Notes under the pieces: model-generated
What the model was told of the DNA's origin: nothing
Database searches by the model: none
Seen by the model: only the letters and a program-made list of their open reading frames with translations
Virus record (IMG/VR): IMGVR_UViG_3300008267_000364
Coordinates: 5,179 to 69,178 of that record
Reading direction: 5' to 3' (one strand)
Length of the DNA stretch: 64,000 nt
Source of the DNA: a virus
Position numbers and translations under genes: made by a program
Shown: piece by piece, positions 5,639 to 63,600 of the stretch
How positions within the stretch are numbered: position 1 is the first letter of the stretch
Layout of the letters: each line of letters opens with the position of its first letter

Positions 5639-6316
5639 TTATTCGTTAGTATTATTAATTAAAGGATTAAATGTTTGAGACCTCTTACCTTCTATTCCTT
5701 CTAATGCTATTTTAACAGCTTCATCAATTATTTCACTATGCATGTGACTAGATAATTCAGAAGTAACATTTGTTGTTAAATCAATTTTATTAGGTTGTTT
5801 AATATATCTCATTCTATATTCAACTATTTGACAAGATGATATTAATTCAACTCTACCTTTTTCCATTAATCTAAGAACAATTACATCATCTGGTTTTCCA
5901 AAAGGGTCTTTAATCCTTTTAGAAAATTCAGAGTGATTTATTGGAATAACTTCAGCAAAACTATTAGTTGGTGATCCACATATTTGACATAAAAGTTTAC
6001 ATCTTTCTTGAACAGTAAACCAATGATCAGTAGGTAGATTTACAAATCTTGCACTAACGTCAATATTATCTGAAGCATAAGGTTGTGTAGTTAAGACTGC
6101 ATTTACAACTATATTTTTTAAATCCTCAATCCTTTTCTGAGTTTCTTCAAAAGATTGTCTTTTTAAGTTGGTAAACCCATATCTTTGTTTAACAATCCTC
6201 TCTTGAGCATTATTTAAAATTAAGTCTATTTCTTCAGGTAAAAAGTTAGGATAATTTAATGAATCCATTTTATCCATCCTAAACTTAAACTCTGTATGCA
6301 TCTCTGCTACTGTCAT
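5639..6316 (-). CDS. Tail ring / head-tail adaptor protein
   Basis: MTVAEMH..F...DK, EIDLILNNAQ, YIKQP, HSEIIDEAV pattern; synteny. Confidence 0.7.
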   Translation of the reverse strand: MTVAEMHTEFKFRMDKMDSLNYPNFLPEEIDLILNNAQERIVKQRYGFTNLKRQSFEETQKRIEDLKNIVVNAVLTTQPYASDNIDVSARFVNLPTDHWFTVQERCKLLCQICGSPTNSFAEVIPINHSEFSKRIKDPFGKPDDVIVLRLMEKGRVELISSCQIVEYRMRYIKQPNKIDLTTNVTSELSSHMHSEIIDEAVKIALEGIEGKRSQTFNPLINNTNE

Positions 6317-18909: not shown

Positions 18910-19010
18910 TTATTACAATATTATTATTATCATTTATTTCCCAAATTGAATTATCTCCTAAGATAACTTCAATAGGTTTATCTTCCCAAAACTGTTGTTG
19001 TTGATATTCA

Positions 19011-19071
19011 TCATTACTCATATTACCACTTATTACTGATTATTAGCACTTATTACCACTTATTACCACTT
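19011..19071. repeat. Tandem 10-bp repeat (TATTACCACT, five to six degenerate copies)
   Basis: tattaccact tattactgat tattagcact tattaccact tattaccact at 19021-19070. Confidence 0.85.
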
Positions 19072-19287
19072 AAATAAATTATCATCTTTAGGTTTAGTCA
19101 TATTTTCTATATATTCAAATATTAATCTTTTTCTACATTCTAAGTAAGCTTTACCTGAACCTTCTATTCTAGAACAAGGTCTAATAATATCTATATAATC
19201 AGGTAAAGATAATTCATATTCTTTATCACCTACCTCTAAAGTAACATGTTCTTCAGTAGGTGTTCTATATTTTACTAATACTTCCAT
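19063..19287 (-). CDS. Hypothetical protein, first gene of the leftward unit, probably leaderless
   Basis: 74-aa ORF just downstream of a promoter. Confidence 0.6.
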   Translation of the reverse strand: MEVLVKYRTPTEEHVTLEVGDKEYELSLPDYIDIIRPCSRIEGSGKAYLECRKRLIFEYIENMTKPKDDNLFKW

Positions 19288-19291
19288 ACTC

Positions 19292-19323
19292 TAAAAGTAA
19301 CTAATAACTACCTTATAACCAAA
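19292..19323 (-). promoter_or_regulatory. Bacteroidota-type promoter
   Basis: Minus strand TTTG-N20-TACTTTTA; shares ATTTGGTTATAA around -33 with the 17807-17838 promoter. Confidence 0.6.
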
Positions 19324-19488
19324 TAATTATTGATTACAATGGGGTACATGCATATGGCTTTTTTAAAATTTTTTTGTAAAATTTTTTTGAAAAATTTGTG
19401 TAGGTGAAGATTTGGGGCAGCCCCAAAACACCCTCCCTCCATAAATTTAGCAGGAAAACAATTCCGTTTTCCTATAAAAACTATCATT

Positions 19489-19713
19489 ATGGAAGCAATT
19501 ATTTTACACATCAGCAAGTCAGGTAAATCTGCATTAGTTACTACAACAGTTGAAATGGGTGACATTATGCAAACTTTAAATGGGTTTGTAGGATTAAATC
19601 CTAAAAAAGAATACACTCTTAAACAGGTATTAGATATACCTGCTACTAAAGTGCGTTCTGAATCTCGTAAATCTGAAGACGGAACTGAATTCTCATTCCT
19701 GATATTTGAGTAG
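19489..19713 (+). CDS. First rightward small protein
   Basis: 74 aa, A-rich leader, followed by a GAAA hairpin. Confidence 0.7.
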   Translation: MEAIILHISKSGKSALVTTTVEMGDIMQTLNGFVGLNPKKEYTLKQVLDIPATKVRSESRKSEDGTEFSFLIFE

Positions 19714-19733
19714 GTAGCGAAAGCTACTTACTT
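19709..19733 (+). terminator. GNRA hairpin after the first rightward gene
   Basis: AGTAGGTAGC-GAAA-GCTACTTACT. Confidence 0.5.
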
Positions 19734-19878
19734 AAATCTATATATTGACTAACAAACAATATATATTACAAATTATATACATACTTGGACTTCGGAGACC
19801 ATTTACACCAACCTGTTAGGTGGTATGTATTACTTTACAAAACACAAACTATTATTAACTTTTTAAAACCTAGAAATC

Positions 19879-20061
19879 ATGACAATTCAAGAAGAATTAA
19901 ACCAAGTTAGAATAGAAAAACAAAGAGAAAATTTTTATAAACTATTCAATAAATTAAATAATATCTGTAAAGAAGAATCAGATATGGATATTTATGAAGT
20001 ATTAAAACAATATGATATATTATCAGATAATGCATTTAGTATTATTTGGAAATTAACATAA
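19879..20061 (+). CDS. Small hypothetical protein
   Basis: Starts within the CTAGAAATCATG leader motif. Confidence 0.65.
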   Translation: MTIQEELNQVRIEKQRENFYKLFNKLNNICKEESDMDIYEVLKQYDILSDNAFSIIWKLT

Positions 20062-20074
20062 ATTATAAACAAAT

Positions 20075-20256
20075 ACATTTAATAATAAAGTAGTCATAAA
20101 CAAGTGCTTTTAGCTTTGTGATGTGAGGTAGTATATTCCTTTATTATTAAATGTTTTTAATGCACCACAACTCACTTCCCAAATGTGAGCAGTTGTAATG
20201 AACATTGTGCTGTGCTTTTAGTAGCTAGGTTAAATCACTTCATTACAACTGAGTGC
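20075..20256 (+). ncRNA. Two adjacent long stem-loops, candidate sRNAs
   Basis: 16-bp inverted repeat 20075-20090/20139-20154; three-way junction 20162-20256 with a 13-bp stem; loops share CAT-N6-GTGCTTTTAG. Confidence 0.55.
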
Positions 20257-20302
20257 TTAATATTAAATCAAACAATTAACTAACAACTAAAAACTAGAAA
20301 TC

Positions 20303-20380
20303 ATGTTACACATTACAATCTTAACAATCATTGCAATTACATTTATTTACTGTGGATACAAAACAATATTAGACAAATAA
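20303..20380 (+). CDS. 25-aa hydrophobic peptide (MLHITILTIIAITFIYCGYKTILDK)
   Basis: CTAGAAATCATG leader; below the ORF-track cutoff. Confidence 0.5.
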   Translation: MLHITILTIIAITFIYCGYKTILDK

Positions 20381-20389
20381 CTAGAAATC

Positions 20390-20563
20390 ATGGATACAAC
20401 AACAATATTAAATATTATCACAATACTTGATAATAGAATAGACATTCATCCTTATGCTGATAAAGGTATAACAGATAGTGAATGGATTATTGCTTTTAGA
20501 AATCATTTACAAAATTATATTGAACAACAACTTAATGCAGCAGAATTACAGTCAGAAGAATAG
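20390..20563 (+). CDS. 57-aa hypothetical protein
   Basis: CTAGAAATCATG leader; stop lies in the terminator loop. Confidence 0.6.
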   Translation: MDTTTILNIITILDNRIDIHPYADKGITDSEWIIAFRNHLQNYIEQQLNAAELQSEE

Positions 20564-20578
20564 TCTTCTGACTTTTTT
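20550..20578 (+). terminator. Intrinsic terminator
   Basis: AGTCAGAAGA-ATAG-TCTTCTGACT followed by a T run. Confidence 0.8.
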
Positions 20579-20602
20579 ATTAATCAATTAAAACTATCAA
20601 CT

Positions 20603-21010
20603 ATGAAAATATTAATTAACAAATGTCATGGCGGATATAGTATATCTGCTAATGCTCTTAGTATGTATGCTGATAAGAAAGGTTTAAAATATTCTGTTAA
20701 AAATGAATATTTACCTTTTCTTGATCTTGCAGATGGTACTAGTTTAAGTTTTTACAATATAGAACGCAATGACCCAACACTTATAGAAGTTTTTGAAGAA
20801 TTAGGTTCTGAAGATTTCTCAGGTATTTGTGCTGAAGTATCTATTGTAGAAATTCCTGACAATGCTCAATATAAAATAAGTGAGTATGATGGTAAAGAAT
20901 GGATAGAACAAATATGGATTGAAGTTACTTTAGATGAACTTAAAAATGGTTTATCTGTAGAACAACTATCAATGGTTTTTAAAGGATGTGATATTAAACT
21001 TAAACATTAA
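20603..21010 (+). CDS. Conserved phage hypothetical protein
   Basis: INKCHGGYSIS...RNDPTLIEV.EELG...IVEIP...ISEYDGKEW pattern. Confidence 0.75.
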   Translation: MKILINKCHGGYSISANALSMYADKKGLKYSVKNEYLPFLDLADGTSLSFYNIERNDPTLIEVFEELGSEDFSGICAEVSIVEIPDNAQYKISEYDGKEWIEQIWIEVTLDELKNGLSVEQLSMVFKGCDIKLKH

Positions 21011-21054
21011 TTTAAAACCAATTTAATTATTAACCAACTTAAAATCAATAGATT

Positions 21055-21249
21055 ATGAATACATCTCAAAAAACAACTAAAACAGGTAAACCTATTATCA
21101 ATAGAAAATCTAAACTACCTGAATTCTCATTATCAGTACATACTAGAATAATGAGAATTAAAAAAGAATTAGGTATTGTAAACAATAAACCAACAGATGA
21201 ACAAAGATGGGATATGATTATTAATGAAATTAAAAACTTACAACAATGA
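21055..21249 (+). CDS. Hypothetical protein
   Basis: 64-aa ORF with A-rich leader. Confidence 0.55.
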   Translation: MNTSQKTTKTGKPIINRKSKLPEFSLSVHTRIMRIKKELGIVNNKPTDEQRWDMIINEIKNLQQ

Positions 21250-21360
21250 AAGAATTAGCATTCAAATCAGAAGAACATATGCTTTTATGTCAAATAATAT
21301 TGGTAGAACAAGCATATTTAAGATTATTATTATTCAATTAACAACTAAACAAAAACTATC

Positions 21361-21774
21361 ATGAACGAAAGAACTAAAATTAGACTATTGGTAATTGGAT
21401 TATCAATAGTTCTAGCAACAGCCTGTGCTAAAGGTCAAACATTTAAAATGTTTATTAAGATTACAGAATCAGATTCAGTAAGACATAATGCTACAAAATA
21501 TGTTGTAAACATATTAGACTATACTCAAGACACTACATATAACTATGTGGTGTCTTCTAATTATACATTATTCTTTGAGTATGATCACATATACAAAATA
21601 TCCATAAGTTCTTATAATACAAGTAGTTACGAGTATTATTTAATTAACACTGGACCAAAGAAAAATTATTTAATGAATCTTATAATACCACTAAACAATT
21701 CAATATTTGAAACAGTAAGCAAATTCATCTATTATAGCAAAGCTAATGATAGATACTTTATAGACAAAATTTAA
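21361..21774 (+). CDS. Secreted or lipoprotein-like hypothetical protein
   Basis: Basic then hydrophobic N-terminal signal ending LATAC. Confidence 0.6.
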   Translation: MNERTKIRLLVIGLSIVLATACAKGQTFKMFIKITESDSVRHNATKYVVNILDYTQDTTYNYVVSSNYTLFFEYDHIYKISISSYNTSSYEYYLINTGPKKNYLMNLIIPLNNSIFETVSKFIYYSKANDRYFIDKI

Positions 21775-21939
21775 ACAGTTAAGCTCTCATATAGATAATT
21801 AGACATTTATGTCAAATATAACACCGTTAATATATTATCTATATCACCTTAATAATTGTTAAATAGCTAATATATGGGCTAATTCATATATAAAAATCAA
21901 ACAAATAAACAATTATAAACCAATTAAAACCTAGAAATT

Positions 21940-22401
21940 ATGAAAAATCAAGTAACAATCACAGCTAACAAAGATGGTCAAGTATTCGTATCTACTGGTA
22001 TCAGTGCAAAAGATGGTAAAGAATATGGATATGTACGTCTAGAGTCTAAATGGTTAGACATGTCAGGAGCAATTGCTCAAGTTCGTAGCTTATCAGCATT
22101 AAAAACTTTCTCAAGAGAAGCTTTTGAAATGTCTGAATTAAAAGCAGGTGATAAACTAGATGGTAAAATAGTAATTAAAGAATCTATTGTTAAAAATCCA
22201 TTTAGAGCTAACCAACAACCTAAAATTCAACCTAAAAATGCTTCAGTTGCAGGTGATGTAGATAAATTATTGTTATTCAATGGTGCACCAATTTACCGTG
22301 AAACAGAATTTACTACTGATATGAATGCAGAAAATGTATTGATTAAACACACTAGTGTTCAACCAATTCAACAAACTGCAGATATTAAGTTGAATGGATA
22401 A
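21940..22401 (+). CDS. Conserved hypothetical protein, possible ssDNA-binding (OB-like)
   Basis: 153 aa, beta-rich, EYGYVRLE and GAPIYRET motifs; function uncertain. Confidence 0.45.
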   Translation: MKNQVTITANKDGQVFVSTGISAKDGKEYGYVRLESKWLDMSGAIAQVRSLSALKTFSREAFEMSELKAGDKLDGKIVIKESIVKNPFRANQQPKIQPKNASVAGDVDKLLLFNGAPIYRETEFTTDMNAENVLIKHTSVQPIQQTADIKLNG

Positions 22402-24393: not shown

Positions 24394-25097
24394 ATGATAG
24401 AAAAAGTAACTAGAAAATCAATGCTTATTAGACTTTCAGGTAGATCAACTGATTTTATATCACCAAGTTTTGGTCATGGATGTTTATATAACTGTAGTTA
24501 CTGTTATATGAAAAGACATAAATATCATGTAATGAAGACTTTGCATTACATTTAAAGTATCATAAATGGGAAAAGATATTTGATTTCTTTAAAGAGCATC
24601 CATTAGCTATGGGTTCTTTTGCTACTAAGTATGTAAATGAAAAATTAATAGAATACAATCCACAAGGTAAAATTAGAATTAGATTTAGTTTAATGCCACA
24701 AATTATGGCTGATAAATTAGAACCTAATACATCTAAAATAATAGATAGAATCAAGGCTATTAATGCATTTATAGATGCAGGATATGATGTTCATATTAAC
24801 TTTAGTCCTGTAATAGTTGCAGGTAATTGGTTAGAAGAATATGAAAATCTATTTCACATGGTTAATGATTATGTAGACTATAAAGATGTTGTAAAAGCTG
24901 AAGTTATATTCTTAACACATAATGAAAATAAACACAAGTATAACTTAACTAATGATATTCCAGGAGAAGATGAATACTTATGGGTTCCTACTATACAAGA
25001 ATCTAAAATATCTCAGTATGGTGGTAAAAACATAAGATATAAACATGACTTTAAAGCTCAGTATATTAAGTGGCTCTTATTACAAGTTTCAAGATAA
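24394..25097 (+). pseudogene. Disrupted spore-photoproduct-lyase-like radical SAM gene
   Basis: GCLYNCSYCY (CxxxCxxC) at 24478-24507; frame break near 24522; remainder (FATK, RIRFSLMP, HINFSPVI) in the -1 frame. Confidence 0.75.
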
Positions 25098-26996: not shown

Positions 26997-27382
26997 GGGC
27001 CTGACATGGTAAGAGAGTGAAACATTTCTATAACAAGCAAGTATCACATTGCCTATTAAATCGTGTGATTAATAAATTAGTAGGTTAAAGAATAATTGGC
27101 AACAATGATTCAAAACTAGGAACTATCCTAGATCTTAAATATGCTTTAGCTAACAATATGTTAGTTAAGACAGAAGTTGAAGAACTTTTAGCAGCTTAGG
27201 ATTAGCAAAATCTTTCAAATCCAGGTAGTTGTAAAGACTGGGATTGTACAGTTAAACAACAAGTTGTAGTTCTTTAAAAACTAATATTCAGCTGAAACTA
27301 TGAAGAAAAATTAGTTATCTAAACTTGTAGAAACTTATAAAAAAGTTTTATTCTAACGTGGGTTCGATTCCCACCAGGTCCA
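26997..27382 (+). ncRNA. ssrA: tmRNA
   Basis: Acceptor GGGCCTG/CAGGTCC-A with G3:U70, T arm GTGGG-TTCGATT-CCCAC, 386 nt, internal tag frame 27098-27199 ending LAA-stop. Confidence 0.88.
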
Positions 27383-27448
27383 CTAAATGCCAAATAAAAG
27401 ATGAGTTAGGCTGTGAAGCAAACCTCATCTTTTGTTATTTATAAACAT

Positions 27449-27519
27449 AGTCAGGTGGCGAAATTGGTAGACGCAGGTATCTCAAGATATGATTACAGGT
27501 TCGAGTCCTGTCCTGACTA
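27449..27519 (+). tRNA. Atypical or pseudo tRNA (Leu-CAA-like D arm, malformed anticodon arm)
   Basis: AGTCAGG/CCTGACT acceptor, GCG-AAATTGGTAGA-CGC D arm, ACAGG-TTCGAGT-CCTGT T arm; no canonical 5-bp stem with 7-nt loop. Confidence 0.55.
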
Positions 27520-27557
27520 CCGAAGGTTGGTAACTCCTATAGGAATAAAAGTTACAA

Positions 27558-27683: not shown

Positions 27684-27829
27684 AGTTAGATAGCTTAATG
27701 GTAAAGCAGGAGTACCTCCAGTGGATTAGAGTATACGAGAAGGGTGAAAGTTCCCATTCCTAGTTGACCACCACTCTCCTTTAGTGGCATCCTTTATTGG
27801 ATATGTGGGTTCAAATCCCACTCTAACTA
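27684..27829 (+). ncRNA. tRNA-like RNA with expanded centre (146 nt)
   Basis: AGTTAGA/TCTAACT acceptor, GCTT-AATGGTA-AAGC D arm, GTGGG-TTCAAAT-CCCAC T arm, about 95-nt multi-hairpin centre. Confidence 0.6.
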
Positions 27830-33241: not shown

Positions 33242-34340
33242 AGAAATAAATTTAAAAGCTAAATCTAAATTAATCATTTCTAAAGAACTTCAATCTCAAA
33301 TTATGTTCTTACATAATAAGGTTAAAGATATTGAGTGGTCAGGTATATTATTTCACAGTGTAGTATCTGGAAATATCAATGAACCTGAAACTTTAGTATT
33401 GAAAGCTGAAAAAGTATATTTACAAGATATTGGTGTAAGTACTTATACAGAGTTTGAAACTAATGAAAAGATATTAGATTTTTATGATGCTTATCCTCAA
33501 GCAATGTCTTGGAAAATGAGCTTAATTCACACTCATCATTCAATGCAAGCTTTCTTTAGTGGTACAGATACTCAAGAATTACATGATAATGCTGGTAAAT
33601 ATAATTATTATTTATCATTAATAGTTAATCATAAATCTGAGTTTTGTGCTAAAATTGCAATAGCTGCTGAATATAACATTGAAAAAGCAAATTATACCTT
33701 TAAAGGTTTTGAAGGTATAGAAACTATTGAAACTTCAGGTACTAAATCTGATGTATTGATGTTAATAGATTGTGATATTGAGTTTGAACAAGATGAGTTT
33801 GATGTACAAAAGTATAATGAAATAAAAGAATCTAAGAAAGTAGTTAAACCTACTTATGATTTCTCAAATTCATTTGGTGAAGGTTTTGGTAGATATGGTT
33901 ATCCTAAAACAACCTATTCTTCTAATCCTGCATATAACTATAATTACAATAGTCAAACTAATTTATTTGAAGAACCTAAAATAACTACAACTTATGAATT
34001 ATCTGATTTTGAAGTAAGAAAGTTTTTAGTAAAATGGTTAACATTAGATGTTACTAATGATACAATTTTATCTGATGTATTATCTTTAGTTAATAAGTAT
34101 AAAAATACTAAAATAACTAACTTTATTGAAGAAATAGATATGAATTTAGAATACTTTATTGAAGAAGTATTTCCAAACTTACCTGCTGGTAAAGAAACTG
34201 ATAAGTTATTACTTGCTGCAGTAGATGTGTTATCTAAGTATTCTTCATTTAAAGTTACAAATAGTATTATTGATTTATTATCAATGTATATATCAGACTA
34301 TTATAAAACTACTAAAAAATCTAAAACTAGTAAAGTATGA
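33228..34340 (+). CDS. JAB/MPN+ metallo-isopeptidase
   Basis: EWSG...HTHHSMQAFFSGTD matches JAMM motif E-xn-HxH-x7-S-x2-D. Confidence 0.88.
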   Translation: MKKYKEINLKAKSKLIISKELQSQIMFLHNKVKDIEWSGILFHSVVSGNINEPETLVLKAEKVYLQDIGVSTYTEFETNEKILDFYDAYPQAMSWKMSLIHTHHSMQAFFSGTDTQELHDNAGKYNYYLSLIVNHKSEFCAKIAIAAEYNIEKANYTFKGFEGIETIETSGTKSDVLMLIDCDIEFEQDEFDVQKYNEIKESKKVVKPTYDFSNSFGEGFGRYGYPKTTYSSNPAYNYNYNSQTNLFEEPKITTTYELSDFEVRKFLVKWLTLDVTNDTILSDVLSLVNKYKNTKITNFIEEIDMNLEYFIEEVFPNLPAGKETDKLLLAAVDVLSKYSSFKVTNSIIDLLSMYISDYYKTTKKSKTSKV

Positions 34341-35023
34341 GTCAAATTAATGTCAAAACTTCAAGATTTAATGAAGCTCCTTGGTTTAAAGAAGGACAAG
34401 ATGTTTTAATAGGTGGTTCAGGTGGTATAGGTTCTTGGTTAGCATTATTCTTAGCTAGACAAAGTTGTTATATTTATATTTTTGATGATGATAACTTTGA
34501 AGAAGTTAATATTGCAGGTCAATTCTGTAAAGTATCTGACATTGGTAAATCTAAAACATCAGCTACTAGAGAAAATATTATTGATTTTACAGGTAATAGA
34601 AATGTAGACGAATTTGGTTTATATAGTGAAGACTCATTAGCTAACTCAATAACTTTTTCTGGTTTTGATAATATGAAATCAAGAAAAATTATGTTTGATA
34701 ATTGGGTAAAATATATAAATGATGATAATGAAGATAATTTTTCAGTATTTATTGATGGTAGACTTAATGCTGAAGAAGCAGAAATCTATGTTGTAACTCC
34801 AGATAAAATTGAAGATTATCGTAAAACATTATTTGATGATTCTGAAGCTAGTCCATTAAATTGTAGTTATAAATCTACTAGTCATTGTTCAGCAATGATA
34901 GCAGCATTAATGACTTCTGCATTTAATAATGCTTTTACCAATTACAAATTAAAGCTTAATTATCGAGAAGTTCCTTTTAGTATTAAGTATCAATTACCAT
35001 TATTAAATTTTGAAATAAAATGA
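34337..35023 (+). CDS. ThiF/E1-like adenylating enzyme
   Basis: GSGGIGS, DDDNFEEVNIAGQ, GKSK, FDNMKSR, IDGR; candidate catalytic Cys in PLNCSYK. Confidence 0.9.
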   Translation: MSQINVKTSRFNEAPWFKEGQDVLIGGSGGIGSWLALFLARQSCYIYIFDDDNFEEVNIAGQFCKVSDIGKSKTSATRENIIDFTGNRNVDEFGLYSEDSLANSITFSGFDNMKSRKIMFDNWVKYINDDNEDNFSVFIDGRLNAEEAEIYVVTPDKIEDYRKTLFDDSEASPLNCSYKSTSHCSAMIAALMTSAFNNAFTNYKLKLNYREVPFSIKYQLPLLNFEIK

Positions 35024-51679: not shown

Positions 51680-54600
51680 TTATAAATCTTTTTGCATTTG
51701 TGAAAATAAATCATTTCCTGAAGGTAATACAGGTACTTCTGGTAAATTTTCAAAAGCTTCAAATGCAGAACCATTAGCTTCAAGTGATTCAAGTGCTAAA
51801 GCCTGAGCTTCAAGTTTTTGTATTAAATCTTCAGAAGGTTCTACAAATTGTTCAGTAGATGGTTGAACAGATTGTTGAACAGATTTAGTTTTTTTAACAG
51901 ACATTATATCATCAGGATCTGCTTTAGGACTAACCTCTTTTATCTTACTAAATTCTTTAACAGCTTTTTCATAAGTACCTGGGAAATAAACACTTACACC
52001 TTTGTAACCTGTAAAGTTTAATGGTTCATAAATAGCTTGTTCACCAATAGCAAAACCTAATTCAGTTTTATGATCTTGTAAAGTTCCATTACCATAAGAA
52101 GGTATTCTACTTAATACTTTTTTAAGTTCATAAACTTTAGTTTCTTTACCAACTTTAAATCTTCTAAATTGAGGAAATTTAAATTGAGCAACTGTTTTAG
52201 TTTCACCAGATTTTTTATCAATATAAGTAATGTTTTTAGCATCTTCACCAGTAACTTCTTCAGTTTTAAATATATTAGATAATACTTTAATATTAGTAGC
52301 AATATCCTCACTTTCTAATCTTTCTTGTAAAACTTTAATTTCAGAAGATAATTCTTTTTCTAACTCAGGACTTCTTTCACTTGCAATTCTAGCTTGTGCA
52401 TTACTTAATTCTTTTTGTTTAATAAATAATTCTAATCTAGTTTTAGAAGATACTTTAAAATCAATAGTACCATCTTCAGCAATATTAACTACCTTACCAT
52501 CATTTTCAACGCTATTATATTTTACAGCCGCAAAACTAGTATTTTTATCAGTAACATAAAGTTTTCTAAAGTTATAAGCTAACTGTTCAAACTTATCCAT
52601 GTTCATGCTTTCTTTATTAACTAAACCTTCAGTAATATCATCTAATAATTTAGAATAGTTACCAAACATTTCTACAGGTAAGAATTTAGAAATACTGTTA
52701 TTTTTAAACAACATATTATCTTTAACCATTAAGTAACTTAACATATTACTAACAAAAGCTCTAGGTGTTAATCCAGTAGTTTCATCAATAACATCATTGT
52801 TATAATATAATGATTTAACAGCATCTATTAATTGAGAAATAGTTTCATTACTTTCCTTAACAAAAGACTTACTAACAATGTAATCAGTAGCATTCTTAGA
52901 TGTATTTTGTACTTCAGAATCTTGTTCTTCTTTAGAAGATCCATCATTAGCTATTGCGGTAGTTAAGTATCTTACAATGTAGTTATCTTTAGTAGTAGGA
53001 TTAATTTTTAATTTATCTAACTGTCTAGCTAAAGTATCTTTTTCAGGACCATTTAATTCTTGGAATACTAATCCTAAATCAATACTATTTATACGTTGTT
53101 CAATAAGTTTTCTTTTTGGAGAATTTAAAGGTTCTTTAGTTTTTAAGTTTTCTAAATTTTCTAAATAACTTCTTACTGAAATATAACCTAAAAACTCTTT
53201 ACTTAATTTAGAATAATTATCACCAATATTAGTAAATGATGTATTTAAACTATGTAATATTTTATTTAAAGATTCTTTAAATACATCAGTTTGTTCAATA
53301 AATATTTTCTTACCTACTTGATTTTCAACTACTAAGGCTCTTTTAATATTATTAAAAGTATTAGCATCATCTTTCAATAATTCTTCAATATCAATGTGAG
53401 CTTTAACTTTATCTGGAGAACTAGTTTCTTTCTTAGGAGTATTGAATAATGCATTTAATTCAAAAGTATCAATAGCTTTATGTAAACCATTATGTAAATC
53501 ATTAAATGAAATATCTAATCCTTGATTTAATTTTAAGAAACTATTTACATTAGACATTATATCATTTTGACCACTAACTTTTACAAATTGAGATAAAGCT
53601 TGTAATTGAACTTCTAATGAAGTTGAAGTATTACCTACACCTAATTCATCAGCTTTAAAGTCAATACCTTTTAATAATGCATTTATTTCATCAGTAGATA
53701 TACGTTTTAATTCAGGATTCTTTTCTAAGTCACTTACCTCACTCATAGTATCTTTAGTAATCCTTTGTTTTAAAGGTTTATCTAAATTCTTAATATAAGC
53801 AATAGCAGCAATAATTGTAGATTGTTTAGTAAAGTTATTTTCTACATCATCTTTTACAGCATATCCAGTTGTTTTTAATAACTCACCATACTTTTGAATA
53901 ATAGGTATATTAATAAACTTAACAGCATTTTCAAAACTCATACCTTGCATAATAAGTTCTGTAACACCACCTAACAATTCAAATTTAATATTTAATTTAG
54001 CAGCAATAGGATCCTTAGCATTATCCGTAAATACGTTCAATAGAATATTCAAGTTATCAGCTATCCTTTGATCTTCAGAATTTTTTGCTTTATATGTACC
54101 TCCAACTTCTTCAGCAATTTCAAATTTAAAAGCATCTTTATTAAATGTTACAACTTTTTCTCCAACTTTAGACATTAAGAATGCAAACTGTTGAATCTTA
54201 TTAGCTGCAATACCAATACCATTTTTACCTTCAGAGTTCTTAGTATTAGCATCAAACTTACCATTAACATCATGAGCAGATTTAAATTTCTTAGATGTAG
54301 TATTGTTACTAACTTCTTTGATAAATCCTTCATCAGTTAATTTATCAACTAAGTCTTTAAGAGCATCTGTAGATGTAGTATTGTTAGCAATCTCAACCAT
54401 TCCTTTGTTAGTTAACATAGGTATCATTGAATCTAATGCTTCATTATTTAATTCAGCACCAGTTTTAATTTTTGATTTAATAAATTCTTCTACATTAGAA
54501 GGTAATCCTAAAGATTTAGATACATCTTCATAGATTTCATTTCTTAATTCATTTAAGAATTTATTTTTAAAATCTTTTTCTAAATTTTTATCTTTTAAAA

Positions 54601-57600
54601 CTTGTTGATAAGCAGTACTTTTATTTAACTCATCATTGTAATTTCTAATAAAATCTTTATTATAATTTAAATTATAAAACTTATAAGCTTCAAATTTATC
54701 TTCATTTGTTTTTTCAGTACCAAATTTAATAGGAACTGTTGGAGCATCTTTTTTATACCAAAAATATGCCATTTGAATAAACTCCGAGTCAATATCAAAA
54801 TCCGCTCCTGATAAGTGTACAATTTCAGATGGGAATAATCCTATACCTTGATAGTAATCAGGTAATAAACTTACTACTTTTAATGACATAGCAGACTGTT
54901 TATCCCCTGTAGGAATACGATAACCTAACATTTTTAATACTTCAGTCATTTGAGGAGTAATAGTATCTCCTATTTTTAAACCATGTCTAGTTAAAATAGC
55001 TTGAGATAACATACATTCTGAATACTTATTACCATCTTCATCTTCTAAGTTATATCCTAACTCTCTAGTAGAGTATTCTTTACCAGAATACAATTCTGGA
55101 TTTTTAACTAATTGATGATGAGAAATAATATTACCTGTAGAATCTGTAACTACAGGTTTTAATCCAGCACTTGATGCTAATGAAACTTTATCTCCATTAA
55201 CTTTTTGACTAAATCCACCTTTACTAAAATGAGATAATACAACTTGTTCAGCTTTAACTAACATTTGAACCATGTTGTAGTTATAACCACCTTCAAAGTA
55301 TTGCATAGTTTGTTCATCAGCTCCACTAGAAGCTAATGCTCTTTTAACTATATCATCTAATCCACTTTTATCAATACTTCCTTTATAAGTACTATCACTA
55401 GTTAAATTATTACCTTTAATATCTTTAATTACAGCAATAGCCTTCTTAAATGCTTCAGATCTACTTCCAGCAATAGCATCATTATATTTCTTTCTAAGAG
55501 CACCTACAGTAGTTTTTTCACCATTAATAACTAATTCTTCATTATCATTTTGTTCACTAGCAATAAGTGTTAAAATCTGAGAACCAAATACAATTTCTTT
55601 TTTACCAGTAGGAGTTTCTACTTGTAAACGCTTATTAGCATTAGACACTGCAAATCTAGACTTAGATAAATCTAAATCACCAGATAAACTGTTTTCAGGA
55701 ATTAATGTAGCTCCTTTAGATGCAGATTCAGTAGCAACGTGATCTACTTCATTTCTATCCATATTGTTAGCTAATTCATGCCAGTATTCCATACCTTTAA
55801 TAGGTTTGTATAAGTCTGCTAATTTTCTAACAGTATCTCTATATTCTTGAGATTCAAAATCATCTGCAAAAATTAATTCTGTTAATGTATCAGTTAAACT
55901 AGTAAAGTAGTCTACATCTTTATCTTCAATATAAGATATACTACTTCTTATTAATCCTAACTCAGACATCTTTAATAACTGTCCATTTAAACCATCAAAA
56001 ACAATAGTCTTTTTAGAGTTTAATGAAGCCATTATTCCAGCTAAATGTTCTTGACTAGAATTACCAATATTTACATTTCTAATAACTCTACCTTCTTCAT
56101 CTCTTTTAGTAAACTGAATAATGTTTTTGTAAATACTTTTAGTTTTTTCATCTAATCTACCTAATCTTAAAGTACCCATCATAATATGATATTGAGAACT
56201 ATAAGACATCGCATCATTAGATGTGTATTTACTTACTTTGTATTCAGTACCATCTATTACTGTATAATCATATAATTTTTTACCTTGATCATCTTTTTTA
56301 ACTTGTACATCTTTAGGATCAACTCTTTGAATTTTATCTCCAACAGGTTTAACAGTAGTGTATAAATCAATATCTTTAATAATTGCAGAGTTATGAGCAC
56401 CTTTTCCATAATCAGGACCAGAAGCCATTGCAGATTTATTTCTTTTAGAAATATCAACTTTATCTTTTCTCTGTATAGAATAATCTCCATCTAATAACTC
56501 ATTCATAGACAAAGCCATCATGTAGTCATTAATGTAAAATTGAGCTAAGTTGTTATCAGTTTTTAAATCTTTATCTAAGAAAAATCTAAGATTGTATTTA
56601 TCTACTTCAGCTTTAAATTCTTGTAATCCTTTATCTAAATAAGTATTGATACCTATTTTTACAGATTCTTTTAAAGATGGACTTAACTCACTATATGGAA
56701 CACCACTTAATGCTGAATTAACTAAACTATCATATTGTTGTTTAGCAAACTCTTTATTAGTAGACATTGTTTCTTGTAAGTATTGAAACTCTGTAAAATC
56801 AAAAGCTCTACCTTTAACAGAATCATTATATCCTTTATACTTACGACCTTCATTATTATCAAATAATTTCTTTTCTCTAAGTATTCTATTGTACTCTTTT
56901 TCTACTTGTTTATCAAAAAATGAATCTTTTACATCTCTACCTTCTTCAGTAAAAATATCTACTTTAGGAAGTTCTACAGCATAAGCAGTATTAGAAGCTT
57001 CATTTTGTCTAAAGATATATCTACCAGTATCAGATTTACCATTATTATTAAATAAACTTAAAGCACTTAATAAGTAACTTCTTCCATCAAATCCACCAAA
57101 AGTAATACCTTGTTTAGTCTCACCTTTATCACTTACAGTAGTATCTCTAAGACCACTTAAGATATTTAACTTAAGATTTTTAAGAAGATCTCTATGATTT
57201 TTAACTAAATAGTTTTCTTTAACAAATTCTAAATTCCTTCTTTCTACATCAGTAGTAGTTACAGGATTTTTACTAAACATGTTTTTCCAGAAAGCATCAT
57301 TCTTGTAAACTGACAATCTACTAATTACATAAGAGTTATTAATAATCTCATATACTTTTTGTCCTTCAGCATTAGTAAATGAGAAGTTACCAATAGTTTC
57401 ATCAAATAAAGCATTGTTCTCTGCCATTGATTTTAAACTACTATCAGCTTCTTTACCTCTGTAAACATTATAAGGATCTTTTTCAAAGATGTCAGCTAAA
57501 CTGAATCCTTCACCAATAGCCTTATTACTAAATATTGTAAAGTCAATTGGAACATAATTATCGTAAGAAGCTAATATTCCTAATTGATCTTCAGTAAAGA

Positions 57601-60600
57601 ATTCTTTAGTTTGAGCAACTTTCTCTAATGAAGCTTTTTGTTTTAATAATGAATATCTAATGTAAGCCTTAGTTAAAGGAATACCTATTGCATCAAATTG
57701 AGATTTAATATTATTAACATTGTCATTAAGTTTATTTTTATCTAACTTTTTAACATTAATAACATTTCCTGATAAGTTGAAAATATTACTACAGTTTTTA
57801 GCTAAACTTTTTCCAGTAGCTTTACCATAAGTAAGTCTATTTTGTAAGTTAGTAGCCCATAAGTTTAATGATACATTACCAGGACTATTGCTATTAGCAT
57901 TAACCCAAGTTAACTTACCTGTTTTTTGATCTAATAATACATCTAATTGAGCTATTCTAGATTTCTTAAAGTTAGTTAAGAAAGCTCTAAATGTGTTATA
58001 AGCATTAGCATTAGTAGGTACAGTAATTGTTTTAGTTTCAACATCAAATGTAACTCCTAAATCTTTTAATATTTGTTCATAGAATGCTTTAATATTAGGA
58101 TTACTTTCTGCAGCATAGTGAATTTTAGAAATCATTTTATCTTCACTAGTATCAGCTAATATTCTAGTTAAACCATTATATAAAGTAACTTCATCAACAG
58201 CAACTTCTCTTTCTTCTCCTGTAAGAATATCAGTCTCAGTAACAGTAGTAAATGCTATGTAACTTTTAATAGCTTGAGATAAAGAATCATGACCTCCTGA
58301 TAACCATGCATCTTGAGAACCTAATTTTTCTTTAACTTCTAAAGCTTCCATTCCACCAGCTTCATTCTCTTCTATCTCATCAACTTTATTTTTAAAACTA
58401 AATACATTTAATTTATCAAGAATTGATGAAACTAAAACTTCTTTAGCTTTAATATCACTAGAGTTTACACTAGTTGGATCATATAAATAAAGTTCTTCTT
58501 TAATTTTATTTTGTAAATTTGAACCAAGAACTTTATCAGTTTCATATTGAGCACTAGCATAAGCTTTACCTTTAGTATTTAAATCTTCTACTCGTTTATT
58601 AATAAAATATTCTATTAATTCTTCAGTAGGTTTAACTTCTTTAGTAACTTTACCATCTACTTCAACACTATTATATAACTCTGGATTATCAGAATACTTA
58701 CCTTTTTTAGCATTGTAAACTTGAATAGCAAAAGAGTTTATTATTTTTCTAGATTCTGAAGCAGTAAAGAAACCATTAGCTATAGCATTTTTCTTATTAG
58801 GTAATAATTTAAATACTGTATCATAATTGTTAGAATAAACATTGTTTACTGGATTAGAGTTAACAAAACTACCTTTTAAGATATTACTAAATAATATACT
58901 TATAGGTTCATTTCTGTCAGTATTAAATATTTCTTTAAAGAAATTAACAACTTTAAAGAATAATCTTTTTAATATATTACTTGAAGTTTTAGTATTTTTA
59001 TCTTTAGCATAATCAGAAAACTTATCAGCTAAGTATTCTTCTAATACAATAGAAACTAATTCTTCATTAGTTTTAGAAGCATAACCAGAAACAGTATCTT
59101 TAAGTTTCTCAATTTCTTCTTTAATATTCTTACCAGATTTTACAAATTCTTCAGCAGCTTTAGTTAAATAAAAATCAATCTGTTCATTATTTAACATTGT
59201 TCTAAATACAGCATGGAATGCTTCATGGTATGCTGTACCAGGTTTACCTTTAAAAGTATTTAAGTAAATTACTTTATTCTTAAATGCTCCATAAGGAATA
59301 CCTTTTATTTTTAAGTTAGAAGCAATAATTTTAATATCTTCAATAGATATAAATCTAGGAAGTATTTTTCTAATAGATTCAATTTCTTCTTTAGTAATAC
59401 CTGTAGATTCTTCTAAACTAGAAGAGAATACAATATCTTCATCATTAGAAGTTAAAGTATCTATTTCATTATTAAGATAATCTTTTATTTTATCTAATTT
59501 ATCAAATTCATTAGTAATGTCTTTAACTAATTCTGCATATTTAGTTAATACTAAATCAGGATTACTTGTAGCATCTTTTAAATCTTTATTTAATTCAGAT
59601 AATATTTTTTCATTATTAGTTACCTCAGCAGATGGAGTTTCTTCAACAGGTTTAGATTCTAAAGCAGCTAGTTCATCATCATATTTTTGTAAAATATTTT
59701 TTTCACTTTTTGACATTCTTGATTCTCGTTCATCCCAAAAAGTTTTTAAAACATGAACTACTTTAGAACCTTGATTTTTTGTAGTTCTACTTATATTTTG
59801 AATTATTTGATATGCTGTATATTTATCTATATTTTTTTTAGCAAATAGTTTTATTAATAATTGTAAAGAATTTACATTAACATCTTGTTCATCAATCCAT
59901 TTTTCTAATTCAACTTGAGTATCTGTAGTAGTTTGAGTATCAGTAGGTGCAACTTCTACAATTAGGTTATTACTTTCAATTCTGCTAACAATATTCTTTT
60001 CAGGATATTTCTTTTTAAGTTCTTCAATATCAGAATTTATTTTTTGTCTTTGTTCAGGTGTAGCTCTTGATATATTAAATGTAACATGTTTACCAGATTT
60101 ATTTATATCTGCTTCCATGATTGCTAAACCTTGATTCCCAATATTACTTAAATTACTAAATCCTAAATCTGTTGCTTTAGCATCTGTAGAGACAGGAGTT
60201 GATGGAGCAGGTTTAGTTTCTGCAACAACACTTTCAGGTTCAACTCCTTCAGCAATACCTATTTGAATACCGTGTTTTAAAAATCCTTCTTTAGAAATAG
60301 AAGTTCCAATATTAGATAAATTTACTTTGTTATCTTCATCAATAAATTTATTATACTTTATATCTCTTTCAGTAAAAGCACCAGTATCCCCATTAATGTT
60401 ACTAGCATTTAATACTTTAACAAGGTTTTCTACAGTAAAATCTTTTACATTAATTTCAGCACCTAATTTTTTTGTAGGATCTGCTTTTGAAACAATAGCT
60501 ACAGATTTAAACTTAGTTCCTTTACCTTGTTTAACTTGTAACTTCAAATACAATTGTTTCTTAGCAGAATTATAATTTAAAGTTAAAGCTCTTTGTTCTC

Positions 60601-63600
60601 CTTGTATAGGTTTTAATGCAAAGAATATTTCACTGTTAAAATCTTTAACAATGTTTTTAATCTCTTCATTAATTTTAACTTTTCTTTCTTTATCAGCAGT
60701 AGCTAATTCTTCAATTAAAGCTTGAATCTTAGTAGTAGTTTCAGTAAATACTTGTTGAGCATTTTGATGAACAGCATTTCTAGCTTTAACTATTTGTTCA
60801 ACACCATCAGGTAAAGTTACCCTTAAATGTAATCCTTTTTTAATATCTTCAATAGCTTCTGAATTACTAACACCTTTAGATTCTACAAGACCATCAGCAT
60901 CTTCTTCTAGTACGAACTCTTCAGCAATATTTGTTTCATTATCACCATAGAATAATTTTAAAGTAGAACCTTGTGGTAAATCTAATTTATCTGCAGTAAC
61001 ACCAATTTCATTATTAATTGTAGTATTTAAATAACGAGTAAGGTTAAAATCTATTACACCTCTTTGAACTAAAGCATTAATAGAATCAATGTCTTTAGGA
61101 TTACCTTCAGCATCATAAAATAAATTAATTACTTTTTGGAAAGAATCTTTATTTGTATCAATACCTTCAGCAAAATGTTGAATTGTAGATATTGGATAAA
61201 GTTGACCATCAGGACCTATTAAATTCAACATTACATTATTACCTTGTTGAGTAAAATATACTGCTTCTTTTAAAGATACATTATTACCAATAATATAATT
61301 TAACAACTGTTGAATTTTTTCAAAAGGTGTCAAGTTGTAATCTTTTCTAAAATCACCAACAACTTTACCATTTTTTTGAATAGCACTATCACTATTCTCA
61401 GGTTTAGTCATTAATACATTTTGATGAGGTGTTACAGAAGATTCAGTTTCTTGAGATTCAGTTTCTTGAACAACTTCTCTTTTTACTTCACCACCAATAG
61501 TAGAAGCTTCACCAAAGGCTTCTTGTTCAAACATTTCACTTTGTATTTCTTCAGGAGTCTTTTCAGTAACAACTTCTTTTTGAGTTTGTACAGGAGTAGA
61601 TTTAGTAGACCATTCTGCAAAAATATTACCAGCTTGTTCTTCAGAAATTTGACCTTGATTAATAGCATCTTGTAATCTTTGAGTCAATTCTTCTTGTGTA
61701 GTATTTTGATCAAACCATTGAGACTTAACTTCTTGAGTAGGAGTAACTGGTGTAACTACTTGAGTTTTAGCAGGTTGAACAGGTTCAATAGGTTGAACAG
61801 GTTCAACAACTTCAGATACAGGAGCTTGTTTAACAGCTTCTTCTTCTTTAGCATCAATCTGTTCTTTTTGATTAGCAATATCTGCATATTTACTCCATAA
61901 AGATTCAGATTTTTGTAAGAACTCATTTTGTAATTGAGGATTTTTTAATGCATTATAAGCTAATACAAAATCTCTTTCTCTATTAGTTAATTTAGATAAA
62001 TCATCTAATTTTTTAATTATTTCATCTTTAGTTAACTCATTAACTTTTTGATCTGATTTTAAAAATTTTTTAAAATTTTCTTGTTCTTGATTAGATAAAT
62101 TAGCATAAGTAGTTCCAAATGTTTCTGGAGTAGAAGTTATAAATGTACTTAATACTTCTTCACTAGGTACAGCTCTTGTAATTAACTCTCTTAATAAAGG
62201 TTGACCAATAGAATTACTAACTTCAACACCTAAAGACTTTCTTCTTTCTTTAGTATTTTCCATACCTTGAGCAGAATACATTAATAATTCTTTTACTTCA
62301 GGATTAGCATTAGGAAATAATTTAGTTACTGAATTATAAGTATCTTCAATAGCTGCAATCTTTTCTAATCTTGATTCAACAAAATCTCTTACAGCATTTG
62401 TAGAAGTTAATTCATCTATTTTAGATTTATTTTTAACAGTAACATCAATACCATAGTTAGTTTTTAGTTCTTCAACAGTTAAATCTTTAAAAGAATCTAA
62501 CTCTTTTTTAACATCATCTAATTTACCATTTTGCAATCTGTTATAAACATATGAAAATATCATATCTTCATTAGCATTATGATAATTAAAATCATCATTA
62601 TTAATTAATGCTTCATCCTTATCTTCAGTTAAATTTGCAGATCTTACATAATTATCTACAAACTTTTTTCTAACAACTTCAGCATTATATTTATTTAATT
62701 CTTCAACTCCTTTAGCTACAATAGCATCTTCAGGATTAGTAATATATTCATCCTTAAAGCCTTTAGGTCCTCTACCAACTAATACCATACCTGGACTAGC
62801 AATACCTGCTGACAATGCTCCAATAATACCTGAATGCCACCCTTCTTGAGTTCCATAAGCTTCAGCTAATCCATGAGTCATTGAATCTGCAAAATCAGAA
62901 GCATAAGGATTATAATATTTTTTAGTATAATAATCTTCTACTGTTTTACCAATAGCAAACTGTAATTGTTCTTGAGTTCCTTCAGAAAGTAATGGAGTAC
63001 CAAACTTACTTGCTCTGTAACCTAAGTTAGCATATTTACCTTTTTCAGCAATCTTATAAGCACCAGTAGCTTCATCTAATATAGAACCTTCTTTAACAAT
63101 TTTAGCAAAGTCATTTGTTTTATTTCCAAATAAAGCTTTACCAAATGTTAACCAGTTATCAGCCATAATTACAGGTAGGTTCATTGCAAATGCTGCATCA
63201 CCTGCCTGTCTAGCCATCATCTTAGCATATTCTAATTCTCCTTCTGATAAGTTTAATTCATTACCAAAATAATCATGCGTTAATTTATATAAAACATTTT
63301 TTTCAGCTTCTCTAGCTTCAGCACCAGATTCACCTTGAGCACCAGCTCCTGAAATGATACCTCTTTTTAAACCATCTTTAATATCTTTCTTAAAAGCTTG
63401 ATCAGCAACATATTTTAATTTATCAGATGCTGCACCTATTCCTACATTTTTAGTTTCAGCTAATATTGCAGCAGCTTCTTCAACAGTTCCTGCAGCTCCC
63501 ATAGCTTTACCTAATAAAGATAAACCTTTACTCCAAGCTCCACCTGCTAAACCAGCACCAATAGTTGTACCAGCACCACCTAAAATATCTCTTGATATAG

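Follow-up and report, generated by a model that had tools for sequence, protein, structure and literature searches.

A structured RNA widespread in crAss-like phages and an atypical copy of it beside an unrelated hairpin module

The two stem-loops at positions 20075–20262 of a 64,000-nt stretch of the virus record IMGVR_UViG_3300008267_000364 (positions 5,179 to 69,178 of that record; the whole stretch is here called the window) differ in nature: one is an atypical copy of a structured RNA that is widespread in crAss-like phages, and next to it lies an unrelated hairpin module. The membership of the second stem-loop (SL2) in this family, hereafter the element, and its architecture are held with high confidence. 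The element is apparently an undescribed RNA family of uncultured crAss-like phages, and for its core a role in RNA processing is tentatively put first. The features concerned are the following, in window coordinates.

20075–20158, plus strand: stem-loop 1 (SL1), an A/U-rich 16-bp stem with a 48-nt structured apical region, followed by a U-run
20158–20262, plus strand: SL2, a three-way-junction RNA, from its fold and its match to the family model
20203–20238, plus strand: the 36-nt insert of the third helix (P3) of SL2, a recurrent apical module that carries motif copy 2
20095–20113, plus strand: motif copy 1, CAT-N6-GTGCTTTTAG, inside the apical hairpin of SL1
20203–20221, plus strand: motif copy 2, CAT-N6-GTGCTTTTAG, inside the P3 insert of SL2

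The SL1 stem pairs 20075–20090 with 20139–20154 around the apical region at 20091–20138, and the T-run occupies 20154–20158. In SL2, the first helix (P1) joins GCAC (20162–20165) to GTGC (20253–20256) and is followed by the joiner CACAA (20166–20170). The second helix (P2) pairs 20171–20177 with 20183–20189, CTCAC at 20171–20175 facing GTGAG at 20185–20189, and closes the loop CCCAA (20178–20182), whereas P3 pairs C plus AGTTGTAATGAA (20190–20202) with TTCATTACAACT plus G (20239–20251) and is followed by a single A (20252). The ViennaRNA minimum-energy fold of the plus strand consists of exactly these two structures. For the 239-nt spacer that holds them, the plus strand reaches −54.8 kcal/mol (z −3.75, with none of 200 shuffles as good), compared with a z of −1.81 for the minus strand; SL1 alone has a z of −3.68 (2 of 200 shuffles as good) and SL2 alone of −4.35 (0 of 200). 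The folds agree with the initial annotation, which had drawn at the same positions a 16-bp stem with a 48-nt region and a three-way junction with a 36-nt insert.

The shared motif, also pointed out there, is above the shuffle expectation at both sites: CAT-N6-GTGCTTTTAG is found twice on the two strands of the 64-kb window, where shuffles give 0.15 and only 1 of 100 reached two, whereas the bare 10-mer with at most one mismatch is not enriched (9 compared with 5.7 expected). The two loops share 13 fixed bases with the same spacing. The idea that the loops display the motif holds as to its location but not as to its exposure, because the predicted folds pair about 6 of its 10 bases within SL1 and 3 of those within SL2, and it forms no free single-stranded loop. 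The apical hairpins of SL1 and of the SL2 insert both fold around GCU...AGC within the motif, which suggests either that one apical module was copied and has diverged or that the two have a binding site in common. A search of viral contigs for the twin pattern GTGCTTTTAG-N85-115-GTGCTTTTAG returned 14 stretches, all of them unrelated (for example, coding repeats).

The family was recognized in 80 loci fetched around relatives of the window's terminase (these and the later loci are numbered with L), the closest of which is L016 (terminase 99%). Distant terminase relatives contain short exact matches to both arms of the third stem of SL2, in one architecture and on the strand opposite the terminase. 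A first model (R1) matched further copies, including some with a wholly different but still paired third stem or closing helix. A second one (R2), built from 30 members with the window excluded, gives a single match in the 64-kb window, at 20154–20276 (72 bits, E 1.9e-17). Most members come from exact matching of the 19-base pattern TTACAACTGARTGCARAGG of the 3′ half, which spans the P3 3′ arm, P1, and the tail and is present in at least 120 viral contigs. A model match at E ≤ 0.01 is observed in 98 of the first 100 pattern loci, and the total amounts to 127 matches, many loci having two or three copies. Each of five whole records, three of them 99–100% complete and 116–124 kb long, carries one or two copies. 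The head proteins of those records are 24–34% identical to that of the window in three cases and without a match in two; therefore, the family extends well past the lineage of the window. In prokaryote genomes, the pattern is found in 26 stretches compared with about 17 expected by our own estimate, and nine of these loci are model-positive, all in contigs of metagenome-assembled genomes (MAGs), being probably binned phage DNA. The initial annotation had proposed a search for the scaffold with variable loops, and the junction does recur with unrelated inserts.

Regarding known families, Rfam 15 at E ≤ 10 places nothing on the element in the window (19650–20450), in L083 (1–1500), or in L072 (2500–4600), three stretches with six copies in all; the families checked include hatchet, pistol, twister-sister, hammerhead, HDV-like, Y RNA, and riboswitches. 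Across 25 element-bearing loci, the gathering-level matches are transfer RNA (tRNA), transfer-messenger RNA (tmRNA), hatchet, and pistol only, and by coordinates the hatchet and pistol matches and the tRNA matches of L186 and L190 sit away from the element, this comparison covering part of the tRNA matches. The canonical element has no blastn match in 50,697 GenBank phage records, and no description of its core strings or of the topic was found in the literature covered, which comprised papers without their supplements, where a listing is possible.

From 5′ to 3′, the consensus reads UAAU, P1 (GCAC), a joiner starting with CA, P2 with its loop CCCAA, P3, one A, the return strand of P1, AGA, and GGG. 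P1 occurs in covarying versions (GCAC/GUGC, GCAU/AUGC, GCGU/ACGC, GUGU/ACAC, and GUAC/GUAC), the window conforming to GCAY/RUGC, and the joiner is CAUAA, CAUU, CACAA, or others. P2 is a 7-bp helix of five covarying pairs and two invariant U·G pairs that close CCCAA, its variants being CUCAC/GUGAG, CUAC/GUAG, CAGC/GCUG, CCUGA/UCAGG, CUAGC/GCUAG, CUAUC/GAUAG, CUAGU/ACUAG, and CUCAU/AUGAG. P3 is of variable length and begins directly after P2 with a C-G pair, as it does in the window (20190–20251 plus A 20252). Two alignments were evaluated.

Alignment A3: 106 sequences, fitted to the model; 94.2% of cells paired (22–43% when slid); changes on both sides in 16 of 20 pairs; no shuffle of 500 as high
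Alignment A4: 30 sequences, aligned with MAFFT and hand-picked for short inserts and variant helices; 97.6% paired (31–52% when slid); covariation in 19 of 25 pairs; no shuffle of 500 as high

In A4, P2 is 100% paired, with five of its seven pairs covarying and each U·G pair present in 30 of 30 sequences. Moreover, covariation in P1 and P3 is seen in less biased copies, namely those from terminase relatives and those that come second within a locus. Finally, a pseudoknot joins the P2 loop to the tail AGAGGG through CCC and GGG: of the 89 members whose loop is of the CCCAA type, 83 have a tail triplet fully paired with it (CCC:GGG in 81, CAC:GUG in 1, and UCC:GGA in 1), and many of the 17 members with another loop, read by eye, pair the tail with a C/U-rich 5′ flank.

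The window copy departs from this consensus. Its P2 (CTCAC-TT-CCCAA-AT-GTGAG) has one U-A pair and one U·U mismatch in place of the two U·G pairs, and where the family has AGAGGG it has TTAATATT, which R2 leaves unaligned. Its end resembles a scaffold variant that has no P2. From these letters, it may be a weakened or altered version of the element, maybe a recombinant with reduced or changed activity.

In the modeled pairs, G·U (105) is far more frequent than A·C (33), which is what an RNA transcribed in the coding sense would be expected to show. This bears on a purely DNA-level explanation, in which the RNA would have no role and the inverted repeats would act as an origin, a structured promoter, or hot spots of recombination. 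Such an explanation could account for cassettes swapped exactly at the element borders, for the 3′ half of an element duplicated around an open reading frame (ORF) in L045, and for the turn of the GC skew near 20 kb. Nonetheless, the threefold excess of G·U over A·C, the invariance of the two U·G pairs, the covariation of the pseudoknot, and the far lower score of the opposite strand make it highly improbable.

The P3 insert is hypervariable. Its length goes from 6 nt (L120:261–327, where the whole element takes 67 nt) to about 190 nt, and clustering by similarity sorts 118 distinct inserts into 105 clusters, a few inserts having been mis-parsed where a second core is within range. The insert type of the window recurs at 92–94% identity in four other scaffold versions, making five contexts, including scaffolds of the other class and with different tails; three of the four retain GTGCTTTTAG, and the fourth has GTGCTTTAAG. 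Also, the related inserts of L114 and L125 differ, by eye, by compensatory changes in an internal hairpin. The shared insert types and the compensatory changes indicate that the inserts are structured RNAs that have moved between scaffolds, presumably by recombination in the conserved P3 arms. That the junction is a reusable scaffold, as had been proposed from the letters, is therefore borne out by the same three-way junction with unrelated inserts. Conversely, since a member with a 6-nt loop exists, the core of the family needs no displayed loop, and the shared motif lies in an optional apical part rather than in the working part of the family. In L045 (5714–6348, minus strand), the 3′ half of an element (third-stem arm, closing strand, and AGAGGG) is duplicated around a small ORF (5718–6011), directly before a second, P2-less element, in what looks like the insertion of a cassette by recombination within the element.

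The initial annotation had read the two loops as antisense to translation starts, silencing host messengers. This reading finds no support in the statistics of the inserts, the genome complements, the pairing of the motif, the 6-nt-loop member, or the separability of SL1 and SL2. CAT occurs 123 times in the inserts compared with 136.9 ± 11.2 in shuffles, and CAT with a T-run in 4 inserts compared with 5.1 expected. As had been noted, the window has no gene with a complementary leader, a pattern search of both strands matching only the two loop sites. In 596 billion bases of prokaryote genomes, the exact 19-base complement of one loop occurs 2 times and that of the other 9 times, where about 4 each would arise by chance on our own uniform-composition estimate; this is a partial test, covering prokaryote genomes generally rather than those of a known host. 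Only two of the matches coincide with the beginning of a long ORF; they come from a Prevotellaceae MAG and a cyanobacterial MAG, which seem unlikely hosts because the runs that hold the phage DNA are from freshwater, lake, plankton, or aquaculture. Two small minus-strand ORFs that begin at two ATGs (31 aa at 20205–20110 and a 14-aa frame seen by eye) were rejected as genes because they are antisense to compensatorily changing helices and the ATG is present only in this insert type.

A broader version of this idea, in which the junction is a scaffold for trans-acting small RNAs whose P3 insert or SL1 apex pairs with, or acts as a decoy for, a host or phage RNA or protein (in the window, through CTAAAAGCAC-N6-ATG), is rather unlikely. 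It would explain why inserts that fall into so many clusters nevertheless persist as types across scaffolds, why they keep their own helices by compensatory change (L114 and L125, by eye), and why both window loops have the 13 equally spaced bases in common; a terminator-like hairpin of their own follows 5 of 106 copies, and L203, L211, and L212 as read, and copies fused to tRNA-like genes would be freed as discrete RNAs. However, the 6-nt-loop member, the inserts without enrichment of CAT or CAT with a T-run, the chance-level complements with none in a likely host, and the partly paired motif are difficult to accommodate, and most copies lie in leaders 25–75 nt before an ORF rather than free-standing, with SL1 and SL2 separable. 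Compared with start-codon-occluding antisense small RNAs, the element is similar in having a structured scaffold with a variable region, but no target or anti-start signature was found for it, and its motif is partly paired.

SL1 is a separate matter, being an independent module, probably a hairpin of the terminator or 3′-end type that would close the upstream 60-aa gene cassette. In L016, the window block 19779–20258 is absent, and about 104 unrelated nt are found instead. Contigs from two public runs of different studies (X3 and X13) keep SL1 without SL2: the X3 contig has 20071–20160 with one difference, 8 letters in place of the SL2 region 20161–20280, and 126 letters in place of the upstream ORF, whereas the X13 contig is identical over 20077–20159 and has 434 letters in place of 20160–20253. 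In one contig of X5, 20 other letters connect 19770 with 20289, and neither stem-loop is present. Short contigs in X3, X5, and X6 match only 20156–20200 and then diverge, as expected from a core common to many different genomes. SL1 without SL2, neither of them, or the SL2 insert without SL1 are all observed in relatives, and the two stem-loops are no obligate pair. No SL1 homolog is present in 200 fetched loci, the exact 20-mer of its loop occurs in 0 viral and 0 metagenome contigs, and elsewhere SL1 appears only in the X3 and X13 contigs. It occupies a slot where other members often have an ordinary hairpin, although a T-run lies just upstream of the element in 20 of 106 copies only. A consensus terminator scan, limited to loops of 3–8 nt, did not call SL1, which has the U-run but, unlike the short G+C-rich hairpin with a small loop that defines an intrinsic terminator, an A/U-rich 16-bp stem and a 48-nt apical part.

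The position of the family was counted over 106 copies with a crude call of ATG ORFs of at least 30 codons. The neighboring ORFs mostly share the strand of the element. The nearest upstream same-strand stop is at a median distance of 53 nt (101 of 106), a same-strand ATG ORF begins within 400 nt downstream in 92 of 106, most commonly at 25–49 nt (27 cases), and a terminator-like structure follows within 75 nt in 5 of 106. In seven of ten loci related through the large terminase, TerL, the window included, the first copy is about 0.3–1.3 kb from a strand switch, after the first one or two ORFs; in the other three, the element is 1.9–4.5 kb into the operon.

This arrangement could fit processive antitermination, in which the nascent RNA of the element would bind the polymerase and allow it to read through the hairpin terminators of the operon. 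In its favor are the one or two copies per genome, the promoter-proximal first copy in 7 of 10 loci, the intercistronic coding-strand position, and the terminator-like hairpins of the window operon (19704–19737, SL1, and 20550–20573). However, four copies are within a few bases of a tRNA-like gene, whose processing would cut the tether, tandem copies 100–400 nt apart are common, three loci have the element far inside the operon, few copies have the upstream T-run, and binding of the polymerase is hypothetical. We consider antitermination unlikely. The put sites of HK022 and the EAR of Bacillus are antitermination RNAs. They are cis-acting, as is proposed for the element, and like it promoter-proximal, intercistronic, and of low copy number, whereas the tRNA-like fusions and tandem copies of the element do not fit them. 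A ligand-sensing, riboswitch-like aptamer, in which the ligand would fix the loop-tail pseudoknot and thereby control a downstream structure, would have the same compact core with invariant unpaired bases, covarying helices, variable-length stem, and pseudoknot, and in L211, as read, the G-run of the tail doubles as the 5′ strand of a terminator hairpin. Nonetheless, the downstream genes are diverse and unannotated, terminator-like structures come after 5 of 106 copies only, and some copies precede a tRNA-like gene or another copy, so that this explanation is very improbable.

Proteins encoded next to the element offer no regular companion, the commonest neighbor reaching 24 of 120 loci. One neighbor, a 487-aa protein that combines DUF2828 and DUF7788 (phrog_850, “RNA-binding protein,” E 7e-139), may be a Ro-like protein in phages. 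Its gene starts downstream of the element, at 158–595 nt, in 5 of 120 loci and is no farther than 3 kb away in 7 of 120 (L138:838–2298 and six others). These loci, together with an L083 insert whose hairpin resembles a T-arm by eye, would be consistent with a protein-binding scaffold of the Y RNA/Ro kind, in which the junction binds a conserved protein and the apical module a second partner. As a general partner, a Ro-type protein was rejected: PF11443 is not in the window record, which is 75% complete, and phrog_850 is missing from four of five element-bearing records, three of these four being 99–100% complete, with the sole match in the record of L138 itself. With no constant companion family either, the protein-binding scaffold is quite improbable.

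Other RNAs accompany the element in some loci. In 15 loci, hand-picked for multiple copies or odd neighbors, Rfam detects hatchet in three and pistol in one, on the element's strand. The four matches are above the gathering threshold (L193:3088–3239, minus strand; L101:6387–6553; L096:5635–5767; and L190:13780–13840, minus strand), each hatchet being about 1 kb upstream of a pair of elements and the pistol in a 5′ leader slot similar to that of the element, ending about 15 nt before an ATG. Also, a tRNA-like gene starts 3–7 nt after the tail in four unique loci (L083, L142, L186, and L190), L214 having the start string only. Rfam calls three of these four genes as tRNAs with long insertions, and ARAGORN calls none. 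Their acceptor stem is AGUCAGG/CCUGACU, their internal insertions are very long (59 nt in L083), and they lie at L083:567–696 (minus strand), in L142, at L186:1275–1374, and at L190:13060–13163 (minus strand). In addition, ARAGORN reports a suppressor tRNA (“tRNA-Stop”) at L112:1748–1822 (minus strand), 98 nt downstream of an element. A hammerhead core-like string after the element in L173 was discarded, not being called by Rfam, and the HDV-like (theta) and hammerhead layouts, compared with the element by eye, do not fit it in strand order.

On these grounds, the core is tentatively regarded as a cis-acting RNA-processing element on the operon transcript, possibly self-cleaving; it is put first because of the invariant unpaired core, the covarying helices, the pseudoknot, the stem of free length, the coding-strand intergenic position, and the ribozyme-bearing loci. 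In the window, SL1 with its U-run would close the upstream 60-aa gene cassette. The core of the family would fold into a compact junction with a pseudoknot and act in cis on the operon transcript, cleaving itself or being cut by a host nuclease. The cut would separate cistrons, or in a few loci a tRNA-like RNA, and the RNA downstream of it would begin with a structured 5′ end. What the data show is the membership in the family, its structure and covariation, the shuffling of modules, the strand, and the intergenic site; transcription, any cleavage, and any influence on expression are inferred. The stronger proposal, that the family is a new self-cleaving or catalytic RNA class found beside hatchet and pistol ribozymes, consisting of a three-way junction of about 60 nt with a loop-tail pseudoknot and a third stem that hosts exchangeable RNA “cargo,” is doubtful.

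Several points weigh against processing. The conservation of insert modules across different scaffolds is unexplained by a pure processing role, and one or two copies per genome are too few for a general punctuation of operons. The window copy is one of the 6 of 89 members without loop-tail pairing and has no tail for a pseudoknot. The ribozyme company is thin, given the choice of the 15 loci, and Rfam finds no ribozyme in 10 further loci. A general link to tRNAs was rejected, since by ARAGORN 2 of 106 copies have a tRNA on their own strand no farther than 150 nt away, compared with 1.7 ± 1.1 at random. Moreover, the apparent near-invariance of the 3′ arm of P3, P1, and the tail is partly due to members having been ascertained by an exact pattern, the alignments are affected by their own selection (the model fit of A3 and the hand-picking of A4), and there is no RNA run among the listed holders of window 19300–21100.

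Comparison with known systems places the element close to hatchet (RF02678) and pistol (RF02679), which are alike in size class, covarying helices, invariant unpaired bases, pseudoknot, and variable stem and also in their intergenic, coding-strand site and which share loci and strand with it; nevertheless, the architecture of the element is different, it has no Rfam match at E ≤ 10, and its cleavage is hypothetical. The RNase III sites of T7-type early operons are irregular intercistronic hairpins, several per operon. The element is similar to them as a conserved intercistronic structured RNA that would leave structured ends, but it is instead a three-way junction with a pseudoknot, with one or two copies per genome. 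The promoter-early stem-loops (PeSLs) of T4-type phages combine a terminator hairpin and a promoter. These cassettes are, like the element, short non-coding modules that flank small ORFs in a hyperplastic region where cassettes are swapped, whereas the conserved part of the element is a covarying RNA junction for which no promoter was identified. In phi14:2, a crAss-like phage of Flavobacteriia, abundant early long intergenic RNAs are transcribed rightward in a small-gene region, with a function reported as unknown (bioRxiv 10.1101/2020.03.07.982082). They indicate that such regions are transcribed in the group, not that the element itself is. Their genomic setting is alike, but the first 9 kb of phi14:2, including the long non-coding region, contain no sequence or structure match to the family (best 10.7 bits, E 0.37, filters off).

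crAss-like phages are among the most abundant viruses, and to our knowledge their non-coding RNAs are almost unstudied, the early RNAs of phi14:2 being the sole report found. The element is a compact, strongly covarying RNA with a natural minimal form of 67 nt and more than 100 natural variants, and it shares loci with two rare ribozyme classes of unexplained biology. If it cleaves, it would add a ribozyme class and a handle on the clustering of such RNAs in phages; if it does not, it would be a defined candidate for early-operon control in phages of Bacteroidota. In either case, it is a natural scaffold that takes inserts of up to about 190 nt.

As judged from its gene set and the runs that contain it, the source is an uncultured freshwater crAss-like phage, whose record of 69 kb has a CheckV completeness of about 75%. 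The minus strand encodes the major head protein, the portal, and the large terminase at 7–16 kb of the window, and the plus strand from 28 kb encodes DNA polymerase, helicases, a primase, and an annealing protein. The gene set also includes a crAss tail-ring protein. The terminase is 34–36% identical to those of named Bacteroides crAss-like phages, and records of Flavobacterium and Cellulophaga phages match as well. Runs containing DNA of this stretch are mainly freshwater and lake metagenomes, with a few from plankton or aquaculture. A blastn search of window 19000–22000 against GenBank phages gave no match, and related loci sought through a 135-aa neighbor protein gave none. The direction of transcription flips at about 19.3–19.5 kb, near the turning point of the GC skew at about 20 kb, and the spacer with both stem-loops is about 0.7–0.9 kb inside a rightward operon of small ORFs, which includes the following.

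19704–19737, plus strand: terminator-like hairpin after ORF 19489–19713, upstream in the same operon
19879–20061, plus strand: 60-aa ORF directly 5′ of SL1, with no PHROG or family match, in the block missing from the closest relative, L016
20257–20305, plus strand: A-rich leader ending in CTAGAAATCATG, whose ATG at 20303 starts a 25-aa ORF (20303–20380)
20550–20573, plus strand: terminator-like hairpin after ORF 20390–20563, downstream in the same operon

The 12-mer CTAGAAATCATG, in which ATG is the start codon, is present in three exact copies and one with a single mismatch, all on the plus strand before small ORFs (19870–19881, 20294–20305, 20381–20392, and 21931–21942), compared with 0.76 expected. 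It may be a phage-specific signal for translation initiation or processing. A further hairpin at 19768–19842 is no better than shuffles (z −0.38). In the X3 and X13 contigs, the homolog of window 19785–19818 is flanked by element-like arms, ...GGCAATTGTAAT before it and CGTCATTACAAC... behind; this segment is therefore the insert of a full element in those relatives, the window keeping only the weak hairpin.

Finally, the window contains other RNA genes and unusual frames. A group at 26997–27385, 27449–27521, and 27684–27829 includes a phage-borne tmRNA, whose tag peptide has ...EELLAA at its end, a tRNA-like gene with an anticodon loop that is unreadable to ARAGORN (“anticodon (ca)”), and a 146-nt match to the whole tRNA model that implies an insertion of about 75 nt. 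Similar tRNA-like genes with odd anticodons (“(ca),” “(tt),” and “(ctag)”) are found in the relatives L083, L022, and L045. A 162-aa ORF (24609–25097) matches the spore photoproduct lyase family only in part, and the replication module encodes a ThiF-family protein (34337–35023). An open frame of at least 4,081 codons at 51680–64000 (minus strand), which runs off the right end of the window, is probably the fused giant protein of the virion RNA-polymerase type of crAss-like phages.

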